This document shows, piece after piece, positions 54,075 through 60,839 of a DNA stretch of 64,000 nt. The position numbers and the translations under genes are program-made. The DNA comes from Candidatus Actinomarina sp. (lineage in GTDB: Bacteria; Actinomycetota; Acidimicrobiia; Actinomarinales; Actinomarinaceae), in NCBI GenBank assembly GCA_038142145.1, contig JAYQJM010000005.1, positions 515,816 to 579,815 on the forward strand. The letters are read 5' to 3'. The notes below the pieces were generated by a model. That model had not been told where the DNA came from and did no database searches. It saw only the letters and a list, made by a program, of their open reading frames with translations. Each line of letters opens with the position of its first letter. The first letter of the stretch is position 1.

Positions 54075-54713
54075 TTATATGTCTTTTAAATTTTTCTTTT
54101 TCCACAAGTCTATTTCCTTGTGATTTCCAGAAAGTAGAACCTCAGGTACAATTTTTCCTTTAAATTCTTCTGGTCTTGTATACACAGGGTAATCAACTTT
54201 ATCATTAGTAAATGTTTCTGAATTTAATGATTCTGGATTGCCTAAAACTCCAGGTATTTTTCTTATTAAAGATTCCATAAGAAACATTGCTGGTACTTCC
54301 CCACCAGAGACAACACTGTGACCAACTGCAATTTCATAGTTTGAATGTAGATCCAATATTCGCTGATCGAATCCCTCGTACCTACCGCAAACTAAATTAA
54401 TTTTTTTATATTCATGTAATTCAGTAATTAGATCTTCATCTAGTTGTTTTCCTGCAGGTGTGAGAAAAATATTAATATCAGCATCAGAAGAATTAATAGC
54501 GGCATCTAACGGTTCTGGCATCATGACCATTCCTGGACCACCTCCATATGGTGCGTCATCAACTTGTTTATAATTTCCAGTACCAAAATCTCTTAAATCA
54601 ATTTCAGATATTTGAAATAACTCTTTTTTTAAGCCTTGATTTACAACACCACATTCTTTCCAAGAACTAATTAGCTCAGGAAATAATGTAATAACTTTAT
54701 AATCTGTGATCAA
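54075..54713 (-). CDS. trmD: tRNA (guanine37-N1)-methyltransferase
   Basis: DDAPYGGGPGMVM, LVCGRYEGFDQR and SGGEVPAM. Confidence 0.95.
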   Translation of the reverse strand: MITDYKVITLFPELISSWKECGVVNQGLKKELFQISEIDLRDFGTGNYKQVDDAPYGGGPGMVMMPEPLDAAINSSDADINIFLTPAGKQLDEDLITELHEYKKINLVCGRYEGFDQRILDLHSNYEIAVGHSVVSGGEVPAMFLMESLIRKIPGVLGNPESLNSETFTNDKVDYPVYTRPEEFKGKIVPEVLLSGNHKEIDLWKKKNLKDI

Positions 54714-56563
54714 AATTGTTTCACATTCTCAAAATTTGAAAACTCTGTATATAAAGTATTTCTAAGATATGGTGTTTTATTCTCTGAAGAAATAATATCT
54801 ATAAATTGATCTTGGGTTGTTTCCTGTCCATGATCTGCACCAGATGCTCGACTTATATTCTCATTTATTAACGTACCACCCAAATCATTCACTCCAGCAT
54901 GCAATAGTTTTCCAGCCCCATCATGTCCAAGTTTTACCCAGCTTGCCTGTATATTATTTATTGAGTTATTGAAGTAAATTCTAGCTAATGAATGTATCAA
55001 GACAACTTCGTCCCAAGTTGGTCCTGTCATACTTTTTCCTTGTAAAAATATAGGTGAACCCATGTGAACGAATGGCAATGGAACTATTTCAGTAAAACCA
55101 TTGGTATTTTTTTGAATTCTTCTAATTAATGAAAAATGGTTTACCCAAGAATCAACATCGTCAATATGACCAAACATTATTGTTGCGGTTGACTTAATTC
55201 CTAAACTATGAGCTACTTCCATTACATAACCCCACTGGGATGATGTTATTTTGTCAGGACATAAATATTCCCGAATCCTATCGTCTAAAATTTCAGCTGC
55301 AGTTCCGGGTAAAGTATTTAATCCTGCATCTCTTAGAAGAGTTAAATATTCCTCTACACTTTTTCCTATCGTTTCTGCACCTTGCCAAATTTCAAGTGGT
55401 GTAAAACCATGTATATGCATATTTGGCAATTTTTCTTTAATCTTGGTTACCATTTCTAAATAGAAATTTCCTGTGTAATCAGGATGTATTCCACCCTGAA
55501 GACAAACTTCAGAAGCACCCATTTCATAAGCTTCAATTGTTCTATCAACAACTTCTTCAATATCTATTGAATAAGGTTTTTCTTTAAGATTTAAACTATG
55601 AGGACCTTTTGAAAATCCGCAAAAGCCGCATTTGTAATAGCATTGATTCGTGTAATTAATATTTCTATTTTTAACAAAAGTAACCCTGTCTCCATTTTTT
55701 TGAATATTTAATTCGTTAGCGATATTTGCAATTTCGTTTACTTTGCTTCCAGAAGTTAAGAACAAATTTTTCAAATCTTCATCTGAGATTTCTACGTTTG
55801 TTTGAATTTTTTGAATTATTTCAGCAAAATCTTTACTTTCAAAATTACTAATGTTGTTAAATGAAAAGTTTTTTAATTTTGGAATATTTTGACCAGATCC
55901 AGGGTACCAATTTGTATCCACTCTTTTATATCCCCTGACGTCTTTAGTTAGAAGAAATCTAGTAAAAGTCTCCTTACTAAACTCTTGACGAGCTTCATTT
56001 ATTGAAAATTTACTTGATATTAAAGTTGTTTCATATAAGTTGTAATCAGATTGATTTTGCAATTTATTTATATCCTCTATGCTCCAATCTCTTAACCAAA
56101 TTGAATCTATACCATTACTTATATACCTATCAGCTTCCTCAATTTCATTGACATATTTTGCCGTGTAGAAACTTTTGTTGAAGTTTAAATTATTCAAAAA
56201 ACTTAATTGTTCGAAATTATTAATAAGTACAACACCAGGCTTCAATCTTGAGAGAATTTCTAATGCTTCTTCTTTATTGTCACTAATGGTATAAACTAAC
56301 CTCTTTGAATTGAGTGAGTTAAACTCTTTCCAGTTTTCATCATCAACAAACCAGAAGTCAGAATCAATATCTAATGTTTTTGAAATAGTTTGAAAATTTT
56401 TACTGTGTATATTATTTAAATTCAATTTTAAATCGTCTTTTACAACGAACGAACTAGTACCTTCTTTTTTGCGTGAATTTAAATATATTTCATTATCGCT
56501 ATCACAAGGTCTAATTCTCAAAAAAGAAATATTACGATTTGAATTAAATTTTTGGATATCCAT
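54710..56563 (-). CDS. cofH: FO synthase CofH-type radical SAM subunit with a long N-terminal extension
   Basis: The CofH core begins about residue 258 of the track ORF (NINYTNQCYYKCGFCGF, GASEVCLQGG, GGTLINENI). The preceding region of about 245 aa has no motif I recognise. Start taken at ATG 56563, though 56605 is also possible. Confidence 0.8.
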   Translation of the reverse strand: MDIQKFNSNRNISFLRIRPCDSDNEIYLNSRKKEGTSSFVVKDDLKLNLNNIHSKNFQTISKTLDIDSDFWFVDDENWKEFNSLNSKRLVYTISDNKEEALEILSRLKPGVVLINNFEQLSFLNNLNFNKSFYTAKYVNEIEEADRYISNGIDSIWLRDWSIEDINKLQNQSDYNLYETTLISSKFSINEARQEFSKETFTRFLLTKDVRGYKRVDTNWYPGSGQNIPKLKNFSFNNISNFESKDFAEIIQKIQTNVEISDEDLKNLFLTSGSKVNEIANIANELNIQKNGDRVTFVKNRNINYTNQCYYKCGFCGFSKGPHSLNLKEKPYSIDIEEVVDRTIEAYEMGASEVCLQGGIHPDYTGNFYLEMVTKIKEKLPNMHIHGFTPLEIWQGAETIGKSVEEYLTLLRDAGLNTLPGTAAEILDDRIREYLCPDKITSSQWGYVMEVAHSLGIKSTATIMFGHIDDVDSWVNHFSLIRRIQKNTNGFTEIVPLPFVHMGSPIFLQGKSMTGPTWDEVVLIHSLARIYFNNSINNIQASWVKLGHDGAGKLLHAGVNDLGGTLINENISRASGADHGQETTQDQFIDIISSENKTPYLRNTLYTEFSNFENVKQF

Positions 56564-57653
56564 TTGTATCAATAATATTATTGGCTTTTTCAAAAATTTT
56601 ATCATTTAACCAATCTTTTTTTATATGACTTGGATAAACTGGCAAACGCTTGGTTAGTTTTTGCTCAGTAGCTTCGACATCCTCAGACAATTTTTTTAGA
56701 TTAGGCCATAAATGATCCGGATTTACCCAGTCTAAAGTTACTGGAGAAATTCCACCTAAATCATTAATTCCTGATTTAAGAAACTTATCGAGGTCTGTAG
56801 AAAGGTTTGGTGGAACTTGTATTGAAACATGATGCGCCGAGTAAATCCTGACTGTGGCGACAGCTCTTAAAAACAAATCATTAGTGATTTCAGGATTGTT
56901 TTTCATTTGAGTGTTAACTTTTGCTCTAAAATTTTGAAGTATTATTTCTTGAATTGCAGTATTTGTTTTTGTAAGTTCAATTATTTTGCAAATATCATCT
57001 ACCAATTCTTCCTTCGACTCTGTGATGCCTAACAATAAACCTGTAGTGACGGGATATTTTACTTCCTCTGCATTGTTTAAAGTTTCTAATCTTAAGTCAA
57101 CAAATTTTGTTGTTGTTTTGTAATGAGCTTTTCCTTTATCATATATTTTTTTAGAGAATGACTCAATCATAAGTCCTCCAGATGGAGAGTATTGTTTTAA
57201 ATCTTGTATTTCAAATTTAGTCATTAATCCAGGATTAGCATGGGGAAATAGAGTTGTACTTTCTAATACTGACTTCATAGAACTAACTAAATAATCATGC
57301 GTAGAATTAAATCCCAATTCATTAAGTTGATTTGCTGCTTCTTTCCACTTTAATTCTGGTTTATCTCCTAAAGTGAAAAGTGCTTCGAAACAACCACTTT
57401 CCTCTCCTACTTTTGAAATAGCTATTACATCGTCGTGGTTTAAATAAACACCACCTTCTTTAGGAGATTTAACAAATGTACAATATGCACACTTATCTCT
57501 ACACAAGGTTGTTAGAGGAATAAAGACTTTAGGACTGTAAGATATAACATCCCCAAACTCTTTAATTTTTATTTCAAAAGCTTTATCTAATAATTCTTGA
57601 GTAGAGACTTCTCCAAAAAGCATTGAAGTAATTATTTGCTTTAAATCATTCAT
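56544..57653 (-). CDS. cofG: FO synthase CofG-type radical SAM subunit
   Basis: PLTTLCRDKCAYCTF (CxxxCxxC) and a CofG-like C-terminus (RLPVYPSHIKKDWLNDKI). Confidence 0.85.
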   Translation of the reverse strand: MNDLKQIITSMLFGEVSTQELLDKAFEIKIKEFGDVISYSPKVFIPLTTLCRDKCAYCTFVKSPKEGGVYLNHDDVIAISKVGEESGCFEALFTLGDKPELKWKEAANQLNELGFNSTHDYLVSSMKSVLESTTLFPHANPGLMTKFEIQDLKQYSPSGGLMIESFSKKIYDKGKAHYKTTTKFVDLRLETLNNAEEVKYPVTTGLLLGITESKEELVDDICKIIELTKTNTAIQEIILQNFRAKVNTQMKNNPEITNDLFLRAVATVRIYSAHHVSIQVPPNLSTDLDKFLKSGINDLGGISPVTLDWVNPDHLWPNLKKLSEDVEATEQKLTKRLPVYPSHIKKDWLNDKIFEKANNIIDTNGYPKI

Positions 57654-57715
57654 ATGTAATTTTTTTAAGGTATATTATTAGTTGATTGTAACAACTATTG
57701 AGTGATTAAGAAAAA

Positions 57716-58729
57716 ATGAAAAATATGGTAAATGTTTCTCTTGTTGGGTTTGGAAGGGTCGGAAGGGACCTAGTAAGACAATCTATCGAAAATGATAATA
57801 TAAACATAATTTCGATCTCGGATACCGCTGATAAATCAAATCTTATTTACTTACTTAAATATGACACTATTTATGGAAAGTTAAATGCTGAAGTTATTGA
57901 AACTGAAAACGGAATAAAAATCGATAATAAGGAAGTTTTATTTAATAATTGGAAAGATGCTTCCGAATCAGATTGGGAATCATTAAATACAGATATTGTT
58001 GTTCTAGCAACTGGAAAGCCTCAAAATAGCAATGAAGTTCAAATGCATCTAGAAAAAGGCTGTAAAAAAGTTATTATTGCATCTACACCTGAAGAGTTTG
58101 GAGATATTCAGATTTATGTACCAGGTGCGAATGATGAAGTTGTTGACTTTAGTAAAAATGTTTTCTCACTTGGTTCAAACACTGCAAATGCTGTAGCACC
58201 GGTTTTAAAAGTGTTAAATGATAGTTTTGGCATTGAAAGAGCTTTCTTAACTACAGTACATGGATACTCAAATTCAAATAGACTTGCTGATGTCGCTGGT
58301 GAAGGTTTTAGATTAAATCGTGCTGCTGGAGAAAATATTATACCAAGTATCACTTCGTCTTCAGAAGTTATTTCAGAAGTTGTCCCATTTATAAAAGGAA
58401 ATATTGCTTCATCTTCTATGACAGTGCCAATACCAGATGGAAGTACCGTAGATTTAACAATTGACCTTGCAAAGGAATCATCAATCGATGAAGTTAACAA
58501 TAAACTTTTAGAGGCTTCCCAAAATGAACTAAAGGATATTATTGGCTTAACTTATGACCCAATTGTTTCCTCAGACGTTGTTAAAAGTACTCTATCAGGA
58601 CTGGTTGATGGACTTGCAACTATGGGTATTGAAAATAGAAAAATAAAACTCATTATTTGGTTCGATAATGGGTGGGGTTATTCTGCCAGAATTATCGACA
58701 CAATTAAAAAATTAAGTCAGGAGCTCTAA
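57716..58729 (+). CDS. GAPDH-family paralog lacking the catalytic cysteine (predicted non-dehydrogenase)
   Basis: It aligns end to end with the downstream gap and keeps GFGRVGR, TTVHGYS and WFDNGWGYS. However, SNASCTTNCLAP is replaced by SLGSNTANAVAP (Cys->Asn at codon 58178..58180), TSTGAAKAV by SITSSSEVI, and MRVP by MTVP. Confidence 0.8.
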   Translation: MKNMVNVSLVGFGRVGRDLVRQSIENDNINIISISDTADKSNLIYLLKYDTIYGKLNAEVIETENGIKIDNKEVLFNNWKDASESDWESLNTDIVVLATGKPQNSNEVQMHLEKGCKKVIIASTPEEFGDIQIYVPGANDEVVDFSKNVFSLGSNTANAVAPVLKVLNDSFGIERAFLTTVHGYSNSNRLADVAGEGFRLNRAAGENIIPSITSSSEVISEVVPFIKGNIASSSMTVPIPDGSTVDLTIDLAKESSIDEVNNKLLEASQNELKDIIGLTYDPIVSSDVVKSTLSGLVDGLATMGIENRKIKLIIWFDNGWGYSARIIDTIKKLSQEL

Positions 58730-59733
58730 TGTCAAGAATTGCAATCAACGGTTTTGGTCGAATTGGAAGGTCCATATTAAGAATTATTGTTGAACAACAA
58801 TCAGATATAGAAGTTGTTGCTATTAATGATCTTGGTGATTACAAAAATCTAGCATACTTACTAAAACATGATTCAGTAATGGGTATTTTAAATGAAAACG
58901 TTTCAGTAGACGGAGATGTCATGAAGGTTGGTGACAGATCGATTAAATTAATCTCTGTAAAAGATCCAGCTAATTTACCTTGGAAAGATTTAGAAATTGA
59001 CGTTGTTATAGAGTCAACAGGTATATTTAGAGATAATGATTCTTTAAACAAACATTTAAATGCTGGAGCAAAAAAAGTTTTACTTACAGTTCCTCCAAAA
59101 GATGAAATAGACGCAACTATTGTCCTCGGTGTGAATGATGAAGATTTAAGTCCAGAACATAAGATTGTTTCAAATGCTTCATGTACTACGAACTGTTTAG
59201 CTCCAATTGCAAAAGTGTTGGATGATAATTTTGGAATAAAGTCTGGCCTCATGACTACTGTCCATGCTTACACCAACGACCAAGCATTAGCAGAAACTAC
59301 TCACAGCGACTTTAGAAGAGGAAGAAGCGCTACACAAAATATTATCCCTACATCTACTGGTGCCGCAAAAGCTGTTGGGATGGTCCTTCCAAAGCTTAAC
59401 GGAAAACTAGATGGTATGGCAATGCGTGTCCCTGTGCCAGATGGCAGCGTTGTTGACTTAGTAGTAGAACTAGAAAAAAATGTAACAATTGAAGAAGTTA
59501 ATAAGGCGGTCAAAGAAGCCGCGGAAAATGAACTAAAAGGAATTTTAGAATATTCAGAAGTCCCCTTAGTTTCAACTGATATTCTTAACAATCCCCATTC
59601 AAGCATTTATGATGCATCATCAACTCAGTTAATCGGAGAAAATCATTTAAAAGTTGTATGTTGGTATGACAATGAATGGGGTTATTCAAACAGGGTCGTT
59701 GATTTAATTGGCAGCCTTGTTTCAGATGGATAA
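58729..59733 (+). CDS. gap: Type I glyceraldehyde-3-phosphate dehydrogenase
   Basis: NGFGRIGR, SNASCTTNCLAP, TTVHAYTNDQ, TSTGAAKAV, MRVPVPDGS and WYDNEWGYS. The ATG overlaps the upstream TAA and is preceded by AGGAG. Confidence 0.95.
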   Translation: MSRIAINGFGRIGRSILRIIVEQQSDIEVVAINDLGDYKNLAYLLKHDSVMGILNENVSVDGDVMKVGDRSIKLISVKDPANLPWKDLEIDVVIESTGIFRDNDSLNKHLNAGAKKVLLTVPPKDEIDATIVLGVNDEDLSPEHKIVSNASCTTNCLAPIAKVLDDNFGIKSGLMTTVHAYTNDQALAETTHSDFRRGRSATQNIIPTSTGAAKAVGMVLPKLNGKLDGMAMRVPVPDGSVVDLVVELEKNVTIEEVNKAVKEAAENELKGILEYSEVPLVSTDILNNPHSSIYDASSTQLIGENHLKVVCWYDNEWGYSNRVVDLIGSLVSDG

Positions 59734-60142
59734 TTTACCAGAAGCACCAAAAGCTATAGGTAACTACACAACAATAAAACAAATCGGTGATCTTATTTAT
59801 ACATCTGGGCACATACCTGTAACTGATACTAAAAAATTTATAGGTAAAATTCCAAATGAAATTTCAATAGAAGAAGGCTACGAGGCAGCTAGCCTCTGTG
59901 CTCAATTAACAATTTCTACATTAACTTCAAGCAATATTGAACTTCATAAAATTACACCGATTAATATTGTAGGATTTGTGAATTCAGAAGAAAATTTCAA
60001 AGAACATGCGAATGTGTTAAATGGATTTACTGATGAGTTTGCAAAATATTTTAAAGATAAATCGACAAGATCAGCTGTTGGTGTGACTAGTTTGCCTCTA
60101 GGTGTTTGTGTAGAGGTACAATGTATTTTTCACTATGAATAA
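59726..60142 (+). CDS. RidA/YjgF/UK114 family protein
   Basis: Start at ATG 59726, overlapping the gap stop. PKAIGNYTTIKQIGDLIYTSGHIPV and the C-terminal VGVTSLPLGVCVEVQ are typical of the family. Confidence 0.7.
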   Translation: MDNLPEAPKAIGNYTTIKQIGDLIYTSGHIPVTDTKKFIGKIPNEISIEEGYEAASLCAQLTISTLTSSNIELHKITPINIVGFVNSEENFKEHANVLNGFTDEFAKYFKDKSTRSAVGVTSLPLGVCVEVQCIFHYE

Positions 60143-60839
60143 ATTAATAGCCATTTCTACAGGTACAAAAGAAGTACAGATGGCACCAGGTGAAATAGAG
60201 TGTACAGTTATTAATCAAGATTTTATTAATGTTTGTAATAGATTAGGTGCAACAGTTGTCATCGTAGGACCACATCAAGATACTGACTCTATAGACATAA
60301 GCAAATTTGATGCACTTGTAGTGACTGGTGGTGGTGATATAAATCCAACCTTATATGGACAAGAATTGGGTGATAAAACAATAAGAATCTCTGATAAAAG
60401 AGACTCGACTGAAATGGCTTTACTTAAATCTGCTGAGGAAAATAATATAAAAACATTGGCAATTTGTAGAGGTCATCAATTGCTTAATGTATATAAAGGT
60501 GGAACTCTTTTTCAAGATTTAATAGACCAAAACGTTACTGAGTTTAACCATGACAGACCATTTGATGAAGCAAGAGAGCACATACATGATGTAAACATAA
60601 ATGAAGATTCTAAGTTATTCAGCATTGTTAAAAGTAAAAATTTTCAAGTAAACTCAATTCACCATCAAGCTGTAAATAAACTGGGAGAAAGTTTAAGGAT
60701 TTCTGCTAATTCTAGTGATGGAGTTGTTGAGGGAATAGAATCCACAAATGGATGGGATGTAATAGGTGTTCAGTGGCATCCAGAAAATATGATCGACGAT
60801 CAATACAGTGTCAAAATTTTTGACTGGCTAATTAGCTAA
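60135..60839 (+). CDS. Class I glutamine amidotransferase-like / peptidase C26 (PuuD-type gamma-glutamyl hydrolase) family protein
   Basis: Nucleophile elbow LAICRGHQLLNV, plus SIHHQAV and GVQWHPE. Its start overlaps the RidA stop. Confidence 0.8.
   Translation: MNKLIAISTGTKEVQMAPGEIECTVINQDFINVCNRLGATVVIVGPHQDTDSIDISKFDALVVTGGGDINPTLYGQELGDKTIRISDKRDSTEMALLKSAEENNIKTLAICRGHQLLNVYKGGTLFQDLIDQNVTEFNHDRPFDEAREHIHDVNINEDSKLFSIVKSKNFQVNSIHHQAVNKLGESLRISANSSDGVVEGIESTNGWDVIGVQWHPENMIDDQYSVKIFDWLIS

Follow-up and report, generated by a model that had tools for sequence, protein, structure and literature searches.

Glyceraldehyde-3-phosphate dehydrogenase (GAPDH) ranks among the most studied enzymes and, in bacteria, it is treated as a homotetramer, in which the binding of nicotinamide adenine dinucleotide (NAD) shows a negative cooperativity that is passed across the subunit interfaces. 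Its mechanism goes through a thiohemiacetal and a thioester that need the thiol of the catalytic Cys, and an Asn is unable to form either of them. A tetramer that combines two GAPDH paralogs is known from chloroplasts, namely the A2B2 heterotetramer of GapA and GapB, both of whose subunits are catalytically active and where GapB bears a regulatory C-terminal extension. Epd and the ArsJ-associated GAPDH are divergent type I paralogs with their own NCBIfam models, and they retain the catalytic Cys. In other enzyme families, partnerships of an active enzyme with a catalytically dead paralog include the Firmicute ADP-glucose pyrophosphorylase GlgC/GlgD, whose genes are adjacent, and HisG/HisZ. The AdoMetDC of trypanosomes and its prozyme constitute another such pair (PMC6221367). 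This work concerns a gene pair located in a stretch of 64,000 nucleotides (nt) of Candidatus Actinomarina sp. (hereafter, the window), where the open reading frame (ORF) of a GAPDH-fold paralog without the catalytic Cys, referred to as X (57716..58729, + strand, 337 amino acids (aa)), precedes a canonical type I gapA (58729..59733, + strand, 334 aa).

We favour, with a probability of about 0.55, the reading in which X serves as a subunit without catalytic activity, probably binding NAD, in a heteromeric GAPDH formed with the product of the downstream gapA. Compared with type I GAPDHs such as that of G. stearothermophilus (1GD1) or GapB of B. subtilis (8WWZ), X is alike in its Pfam domains, fold and sequence (37-38% identity) and has the Rossmann motif, Asp32, His176 and Asn313 in common with them, but it differs in the absence of Cys149, Arg195, Arg231 and Thr207-Gly209 and in having Gly instead of Glu314. 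Like the chloroplast enzyme, the proposed X/GapA complex would bring two GAPDH paralogs together in one tetramer; unlike it, X has neither the catalytic residues nor an extension, and is encoded in an overlapping bacterial gene pair. With prozyme, GlgD and HisZ, X shares the condition of being the paralog of an active enzyme, having lost catalytic residues under purifying selection and having a proposed function that requires the active enzyme, although the enzyme family is a different one and, for X, both the complex and the effect on activity are proposals made from sequence. This comparison suggests that what is new here is the pairing of enzyme and dead paralog within GAPDH, since that kind of partnership is itself known. 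No natural Cys-less GAPDH partner and no tandem gapX-gapA report was found in the PDB or in the literature (most subscription journals being outside its scope), NCBIfam has no dedicated model for the family of X, and GAPDH is unmentioned in the Actinomarinales genome paper (PMC7771536), which is in line with the preliminary description of this DNA, where no described function was known for such a pair.

X in the window and among its close relatives

The ORF map shows the two full-length GAPDH genes in tandem that had been read from the letters alone. The stop codon of X (TAA, 58727-58729) and the start codon of gapA (ATG, 58729-58731) have one base in common, forming the TAATG at 58727..58731, and a Shine-Dalgarno motif AGGAG (58719..58723), contained in the 3' end of X, is placed 6 nt ahead of that ATG, the whole coupling junction covering 58719..58731 of the + strand. 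The start of X is ambiguous, given that its ORF opens with MKNM at 57716 and most relatives begin at the position of Met4 (ATG 57725), and no clear Shine-Dalgarno motif lies upstream of either ATG. Apart from X and gapA, there is no further GAPDH gene within the 64-kb window.

X keeps (all positions on the + strand) the Rossmann motif GFGRVGR (residues 11-17, 57746..57766), the equivalent of Asp32 (Asp36, 57821..57823), that of the catalytic base His176 (His182, codon CAT, 58259..58261), within the segment TTVHGYS, and the C-terminal WFDNGWGYS (WFDNGWGY at 58658..58681), in which Asn313 is retained and Glu314 has become Gly, the latter being a signature of the family. The former active-site segment is SLGSNTANAVAP (58166..58201), the canonical one being SNASCTTNCLAP, with an Asn (AAC, 58178..58180) at the position of Cys149 and an Ala at that of the second Cys. 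In the S-loop (residues 185-207, SNSNRLADVAGEGFRLNRAAGEN, 58268..58336) the equivalent of Arg195 is Leu, the Pi-site is SITSSSEVI (58346..58372) in place of TSTGAAKAV, and Thr236 (ACA, 58421..58423) stands at the position of Arg231, which turns MRVP into MTVP and leaves X without the Arg that binds the C3 phosphate. The preliminary description had read the retained motifs, the changes of both Cys residues and those of the Pi-site and MRVP segments correctly. As a whole, the anion (Ps/Pi) sites of X show R231T, R195L, G209S and T207S, with Ser at 179, and retain only Thr208; the signature at 149/176/195/209/231/314 is N-H-L-S-T-G, as in the definition of the X family given below. Since Cys149, Arg195, Arg231 and Gly209 are gone, the X of the window would be barred from the GAPDH mechanism. 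The gapA of the window has the same six positions intact (C149/H176/R195/G209/R231/E314), its catalytic residue being Cys152 (59182..59184, +).

Both proteins match the Pfam domains Gp_dh_N and Gp_dh_C (X with 82.8 and 136.8 bits, the gathering cutoffs being 31.7 and 24.4), and they are 37% identical over 331 aa (E-value 7e-81). The equivalog model of type I GAPDH, TIGR01534, with a cutoff of 367.2 bits, is passed by the gapA product (452 bits), so that its canonical type I character, already noted on the basis of its motifs, holds, and failed by X (273.5 bits, 94 below). In fact, X is beneath the cutoffs of all the models for GAPDH and for erythrose-4-phosphate dehydrogenase, reaching 196 and 209 bits with the Epd models TIGR01532 and NF010058 (cutoffs, 530 and 539) and 248.7 bits with the model of the ArsJ-associated GAPDH, NF033735 (cutoff, 450); unlike these two kinds of paralogs, it has no catalytic Cys. 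No arsJ gene is found beside X, whose neighbours are cofG, gapA, ridA and a glutamine amidotransferase gene. X belongs, by its fold, to the GAPDH superfamily, outside the type I, Epd and ArsJ-associated families.

When 5.8 billion proteins were searched, 120 clusters (at 90% identity) with 66-98% identity to X were listed, their sources being numerous independent marine assemblies and the NCBI records of Acidimicrobiia/Acidimicrobiaceae. The Asn at the site (GSNTA) is present in all 120 of them and, because these relatives derive from independent assemblies, it is no read or assembly error, which settles that the codon at 58178..58180 is genuine. In an alignment of 19 relatives, the former active site and the S-loop are invariant (TTVHGYSNSNRLADVAGEGFRLNRAAGENIIP, SSSMTVP.PDGS, DPIVSSDVV and WFDNGWGY). 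The ratio of non-synonymous to synonymous substitution rates (dN/dS, Nei-Gojobori method, loci of the Actinomarina clade) is 0.06-0.11 for X and 0.03-0.09 for GapA, values that are rough, dS being mostly saturated, and clear in their direction: X is under purifying selection. The AlphaFold2 monomer model of X has a predicted local distance difference test (pLDDT) of 88.4 and a predicted template modelling score (pTM) of 0.89, with the S-loop (185-207) as the sole segment with pLDDT below 50, and Foldseek gives it a template modelling score (TM-score) of 0.91 to 1gd1/1dbv, the GAPDH of G. stearothermophilus; X is, according to this model, predicted to fold as a GAPDH. A GC content of 32%, the synteny and named hits to single-amplified and metagenome-assembled genomes of Ca. 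Actinomarina agree in placing the window in Actinomarinales. The genomes of Actinomarinales have about 1.1 Mb and about 44 paralogs in total (PMC7771536), and the maintenance of X in such streamlined, paralog-poor genomes argues that it is needed. A lineage-specific decay of X was considered and rejected on the basis of dN/dS, of its spread over many phyla and of its intact relatives, and so the preliminary view of an intact gene stands.

A family paired with gapA across phyla

A profile search of 1.84 billion representatives, in which the Actinomarinales clade was collapsed to four sequences, found further GAPDH-like proteins with three common changes, i.e., the loss of Arg231, the replacement of Glu314 by Gly, Ser or Ala, and the loss of Gly209, which carry N, V, S, A, P, G and even C at position 149. 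These X-type representatives cluster apart from canonical GAPDH in a neighbour-joining (NJ) tree. A profile built from ten X-type proteins produced thousands more matches, those with a name being from Acidobacteriota, Thermoanaerobaculia and metagenome-assembled genomes (MAGs) of Desulfobacterales; in the best 120 of them, Cys149 is present in 111, Asn231 in all and Glu314 in none (Gly in 117, Ser in 3). The X family is defined by R231->N/T, E314->G and the loss of G209, and not by the loss of the Cys. Members with the Cys are barely over the cutoff of TIGR01534 (383 and 368 bits vs 367.2) and those without it fail, and the names in the records would need correction: Cys-type X are automatically called 'type I GAPDH', and Cys-less ones receive a generic domain name ('GAPDH NAD-binding domain-containing protein') or 'hypothetical protein'.

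This family is also conserved in its genetic neighbour. In all of six representatives (P0125, P0127, P0129, P0307, P0301 and P0366), X is followed by a GAPDH gene that starts -4 to +5 nt from the stop of X and whose product carries SNASCTTNCLAP wherever it could be read (the contig of P0125 ends after 27 residues), and the genes flanking these six pairs have nothing in common. A degenerate DNA motif coding for W[FY]DNGWG[YF], applied to one genome per GTDB species, provided at least 120 loci, including one chance match (Ca. Nitrotoga) and 102 with a full-length X. A GAPDH gene lies directly downstream, on the same strand, in 99 of these 102 listed loci and the other three end after X, so X is followed at once by a GAPDH gene in every listed locus with enough sequence (99/99). 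Out of the 99 downstream GAPDHs, 87 are full-length with C149/H176/R195/G209/R231/E314, and the remaining 12 are incomplete, mostly cut by the end of the locus. Stop and start codons overlap in 75 of the 99 listed pairs (spacing -8 to -1 nt), and motifs resembling Shine-Dalgarno sequences, with spacings from -8 to +5 nt, occur in eight lineages whose content of guanine plus cytosine ranges from 31 to 71%. Three loci from high-GC MAGs (L065, L105 and L127) were left out of the pair statistics owing to their overlapping or fragmented GAPDH-like ORFs, for which frameshifts, misassembly or spurious long ORFs could be responsible.

X and gapA are, in this way, inherited together in at least 10, mostly uncultured, bacterial phyla, the carriers being nearly all MAGs or single-amplified genomes. 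They comprise Actinomarina and other Acidimicrobiia (Actinomycetota), Neomarinimicrobiota (SAR406), Thermoanaerobaculia, Holophagales and other Acidobacteriota, Desulfobacterales/Desulfosarcinaceae, Planctomycetota, Eisenbacteria, Krumholzibacteriia, 'Ca. Multivorans', Myxococcota, Fidelibacterota, uncultured Bdellovibrionales, Fibrobacteraceae and Gammaproteobacteria. The flanks of the pair vary by lineage and include F420 genes, leu genes, fumarase, pheST, iPGM...pgk-fba and pyruvate kinase. In a MAG of Desulfobacterales (L015/L016:3197-9498), the pair is found within a glycolytic cluster with the order iPGM, X, gapA, pgk, fba, which links X to glycolysis more directly than the context in Actinomarina does.

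The residues that the family keeps and loses were compared in 87 X proteins and their 87 partner GapAs, over 112 columns with at least 95% conservation in the latter. Position 149 is C in 31 X proteins, S in 23, N in 16, A in 5 and F in 5, with a few I, P, V and G, and position 231 is never Arg (N 76, T 7, D 3, S 1). G209 is retained in 6%, and positions 207 and 209 are variable. On the other hand, GxGxxG is present in 100% of the X proteins, Arg10 in 93%, Asp32 in 91% (else Glu) and His176 in 94%, and Arg194/Arg197, NxIP, VPxxxGSxxD and VSxD are also kept (91-100%), as are S148, T150 and T208 (92-100%). Asn6, Asn31, Phe99, Thr119/Ala120, the rest of the SCTTNC helix, His190, Thr207 and Glu314 are lost at columns that the partners conserve; columns 312-319 are biased in this comparison, since the search pattern fixes E314G and N313 by construction, and X genes found by other routes have degenerate C-terminal motifs (WFDTGWGY and WHSTLGHS). 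As for their distribution, residues at 149 track taxonomy loosely, with C in Acidobacteriota, Desulfobacterales, Planctomycetota and Eisenbacteria, S in Marinimicrobia, N in Acidimicrobiia and Actinomarinales, and F, V, I, P, A and G scattered, several states being found within single phyla. These nine residues, with their loose taxonomic distribution, indicate that the thiol was lost repeatedly, and the variation at this position implies a function of the family that does not depend on it. Therefore, of the suggested clade of Cys-less copies with gap as a constant neighbour, the adjacency stands and the loss of the Cys as a marker of the clade does not, as Cys149 is retained in about 36% of the members, which could have kept a weak enzymatic activity.

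Among the loci looked at, the degeneration of the active site goes furthest in a subtype with Phe149 and an Arg in place of His176, from Ca. Multivorans, Thermoanaerobaculia and other Acidobacteria MAGs, with the signatures F-R-K-G-D-G, i.e., with Asp231 (L048, L050, L059 and L121), and F-R-S-E-N-G (L093 and L098); even so, a gapA of the canonical type overlaps each of these genes (in L048 it is truncated by the end of the locus). His176, Asn313 and Arg10 are gone in some lineages too. One X gene (L140:1982-3004), with a pyruvate kinase gene directly upstream, combines WHSTLGHS with the Rossmann motif GLGHIGR, where Arg10 is lost, and NAD binding may have disappeared in some lineages such as this one. 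Judging from these residues, the family has no common catalytic residue at the old active site and holds on to the fold and to the oligomer-forming parts.

The partner GapAs are particular as well. The NJ tree built from 295 sequences places all X in one split and all 87 partner GapAs in another, including the gapA product of the window, the sole extra members of the second split being P0132, P0175 and P0133. As a reciprocal test, P0132 and P0175, chosen by the tree alone, were both found to be preceded by an X gene with a 4-nt overlap. Furthermore, in 87/87 cases the distance from X to the partner-GapA clade is smaller than that to 102 other GAPDH representatives, and the Ala of the S-loop motif RLAD, present in 93% of X, in 93% of partner GapAs and in 0/100 other GAPDH representatives, reads as a derived state common to X and partner GapA alone. 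The matrices of pairwise distances of X and partner GapA correlate with r = 0.87, X evolving 1.57 times faster.

A putative subunit of a heteromeric GAPDH

The coupled pair, the partner-specific clade of GapA, the loss of catalytic and phosphate-binding residues, the retention of the Rossmann and interface elements, and the purifying selection make a heteromer the simplest reading. According to it, X would enter, as a stoichiometric component, into a hetero-oligomeric GAPDH such as an A2X2 tetramer. The co-transcription and translational coupling of X and gapA would lead to roughly equal amounts of both proteins; X keeps the GAPDH fold together with the adenine-dinucleotide half of the NAD site and with the elements that form the oligomer (the S-loop and the strands of the catalytic domain), and, with neither the thiol nucleophile nor the two phosphate sites, it would not oxidize glyceraldehyde-3-phosphate. 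Occupying half of the positions of the tetramer, it could determine how stable or how cooperative the two catalytic GapA subunits are, or how they respond to NAD(H). Given that negative cooperativity is transmitted across the interfaces, a tetramer with two NAD-binding X positions without turnover would be a plausible way to fix or tune such a behaviour. We infer, in consequence, the physical association of X with GapA, its stoichiometry, the binding of NAD by X and its effect on the activity of GapA. A broader proposal, which we make tentatively, is that in at least 10 phyla the glycolytic GAPDH would be an obligate heteromer of GapA and a co-evolving, degenerate NAD(H)-binding paralog that acts as an allosteric or stabilizing subunit.

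Several observations weigh against the subunit hypothesis. Adjacency and coupling fit equally well two separate proteins of one pathway, and the approximately 36% of the family that keep Cys149, His176 and Arg195 could still be enzymes. The conservation of Asn231 (87%) hints at a pocket that is re-specified rather than dead, and the invariant former active site of the Actinomarinales clade would also fit a new ligand or catalytic site. The phylogenetic signal is modest, as the splits of X and of partner GapA reach exact bootstrap values of 27/100 and 47/100, respectively (60 and 73 when two stray taxa are allowed), and a sister relation of X and partner GapA is not recovered by NJ (1/100), being hinted at only by the mean distances and the common Ala of the S-loop. 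The correlation of the distance matrices is to be expected from shared descent alone, and the columns of the X S-loop are frequent among the top inter-protein pairs in mutual information, yet with an effective number of sequences (Neff) of 50 and with the phylogeny uncorrected.

Some of these points bear on an alternative that we find unlikely, namely that X has been neofunctionalised into a stand-alone NAD(P)-dependent enzyme or ligand binder, with a re-specified pocket and linked to GapA by the pathway, whose substrate would be non-phosphorylated or differently charged and receive a direct hydride transfer without a thiol. Together with Asn231 and the invariant active-site region, the conservation of S148, T150 and T208 in the family and the presence of the Rossmann motif, Asp32, His176 and Asn313 in the X of the window would suit it, and other families with a GAPDH-like C-terminal fold do act without a Cys nucleophile. 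However, the pocket is not conserved in the family as a whole (nine residues at 149, variable 207 and 209, and losses of Asn313, His176 and Arg10), no common catalytic residue substitutes for the Cys, and an independent enzyme would hardly stay joined to gapA in all 99 listed genomes while its other neighbours change. The loss of catalytic residues with conservation of the dinucleotide-binding half, as well as the co-transcription with gapA, could also be understood if X were a non-enzymatic regulator or a moonlighting protein (a sensor of free NAD(H), or a factor that binds RNA or proteins), co-expressed with GapA without being its stoichiometric subunit. This is still less probable, because the translational coupling in 75 of the 99 listed pairs indicates a matched stoichiometry, no parts of X are better conserved than its oligomerisation elements, the separate clade of partner GapAs suggests mutual adaptation, and neither Pfam nor Foldseek revealed an additional domain or motif for another partner in X.

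An active or low-activity GAPDH, working through another nucleophile or mechanism, is very improbable: X has the fold, His176 and most of the NAD site, and Cys-type members just pass TIGR01534, but the X of the window has none of Cys149, Arg195, Arg231, Thr207 and Gly209 and is 94 bits under the cutoff. Finally, the rate of evolution of X, around 1.6 times that of GapA, might raise the thought of a decaying duplicate or of an assembly or sequencing artefact, which the data refute, as the ORF is intact in every relative looked at, the Asn is present in 120/120 listed clusters, dN/dS is as low as stated above, the family is found in many phyla, and the gene is kept in streamlined genomes.

If X were indeed a subunit of GAPDH together with GapA, a textbook enzyme would acquire a new quaternary form, and kinetic and regulatory models of central carbon metabolism would be affected in abundant uncultured marine and soil bacteria, since the carriers include very abundant marine groups (Actinomarinales and SAR406/Marinimicrobia), and Acidobacteriota and Desulfobacterales that are common in soil and sediment. 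In addition, the repeated loss of the Cys would constitute a natural experiment in the passage from a half-of-the-sites homotetramer to a heterotetramer of enzyme and pseudoenzyme, and its many independent cases a tractable system for studying how pseudoenzyme subunits evolve from negatively cooperative homomers.

Neighbouring genes and minor observations

In the window, gapA is tightly followed by a RidA-family gene (59726..60142, +, taking an internal ATG) and by a gene for a class I glutamine amidotransferase of the peptidase C26 type (60135..60839, +), whose Pfam assignments were taken from the syntenic loci L001-L006. X, gapA and these two genes constitute, in Actinomarinales (also in L001-L006), a four-gene operon with overlapping or nearly overlapping junctions that stands in for the usual order gap-pgk-tpi. 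The RidA and glutamine amidotransferase genes are beside the pair only in Actinomarinales and absent there in other phyla, so they are outside the conserved unit, which is the pair itself.

On the other side of X, and transcribed divergently from it, two mutually overlapping genes, cofH-like (631 aa) and cofG-like (369 aa), encode a split FO-synthase (fbiC) for coenzyme F420 (54710..57653, - strand). A link of X to F420 was considered and rejected, as this neighbourhood is conserved in Actinomarinales only and absent from all other pair-carrying lineages looked at; the F420 genes adjoin the gap pair by coincidence. The 62 nt that separate the divergent genes (57654..57715) presumably include the promoter from which X and gapA are transcribed as an operon. 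The promoter and terminator scans of the locus remained at background level, with a single weak sigma-70-like match (57649-57678) that, since the number of matches equals that of shuffled controls, is no sign of function.

With regard to fusions, no natural X-GapA fusion was found among 150 representatives, and P0133, a candidate for it, was rejected as a miscalled junction in which the tail of X is joined to GapA. Two giant proteins, P0123 (2089 aa) and P0130 (1455 aa), have an N-terminus resembling a signal peptide and contain between two and four GAPDH-like domains, which alternate between two types, with a phosphoglycerate-kinase-like segment in P0123 and HEAT-like repeats in P0130. They look like secreted or fused multi-GAPDH architectures, unrelated to an X-GapA fusion.

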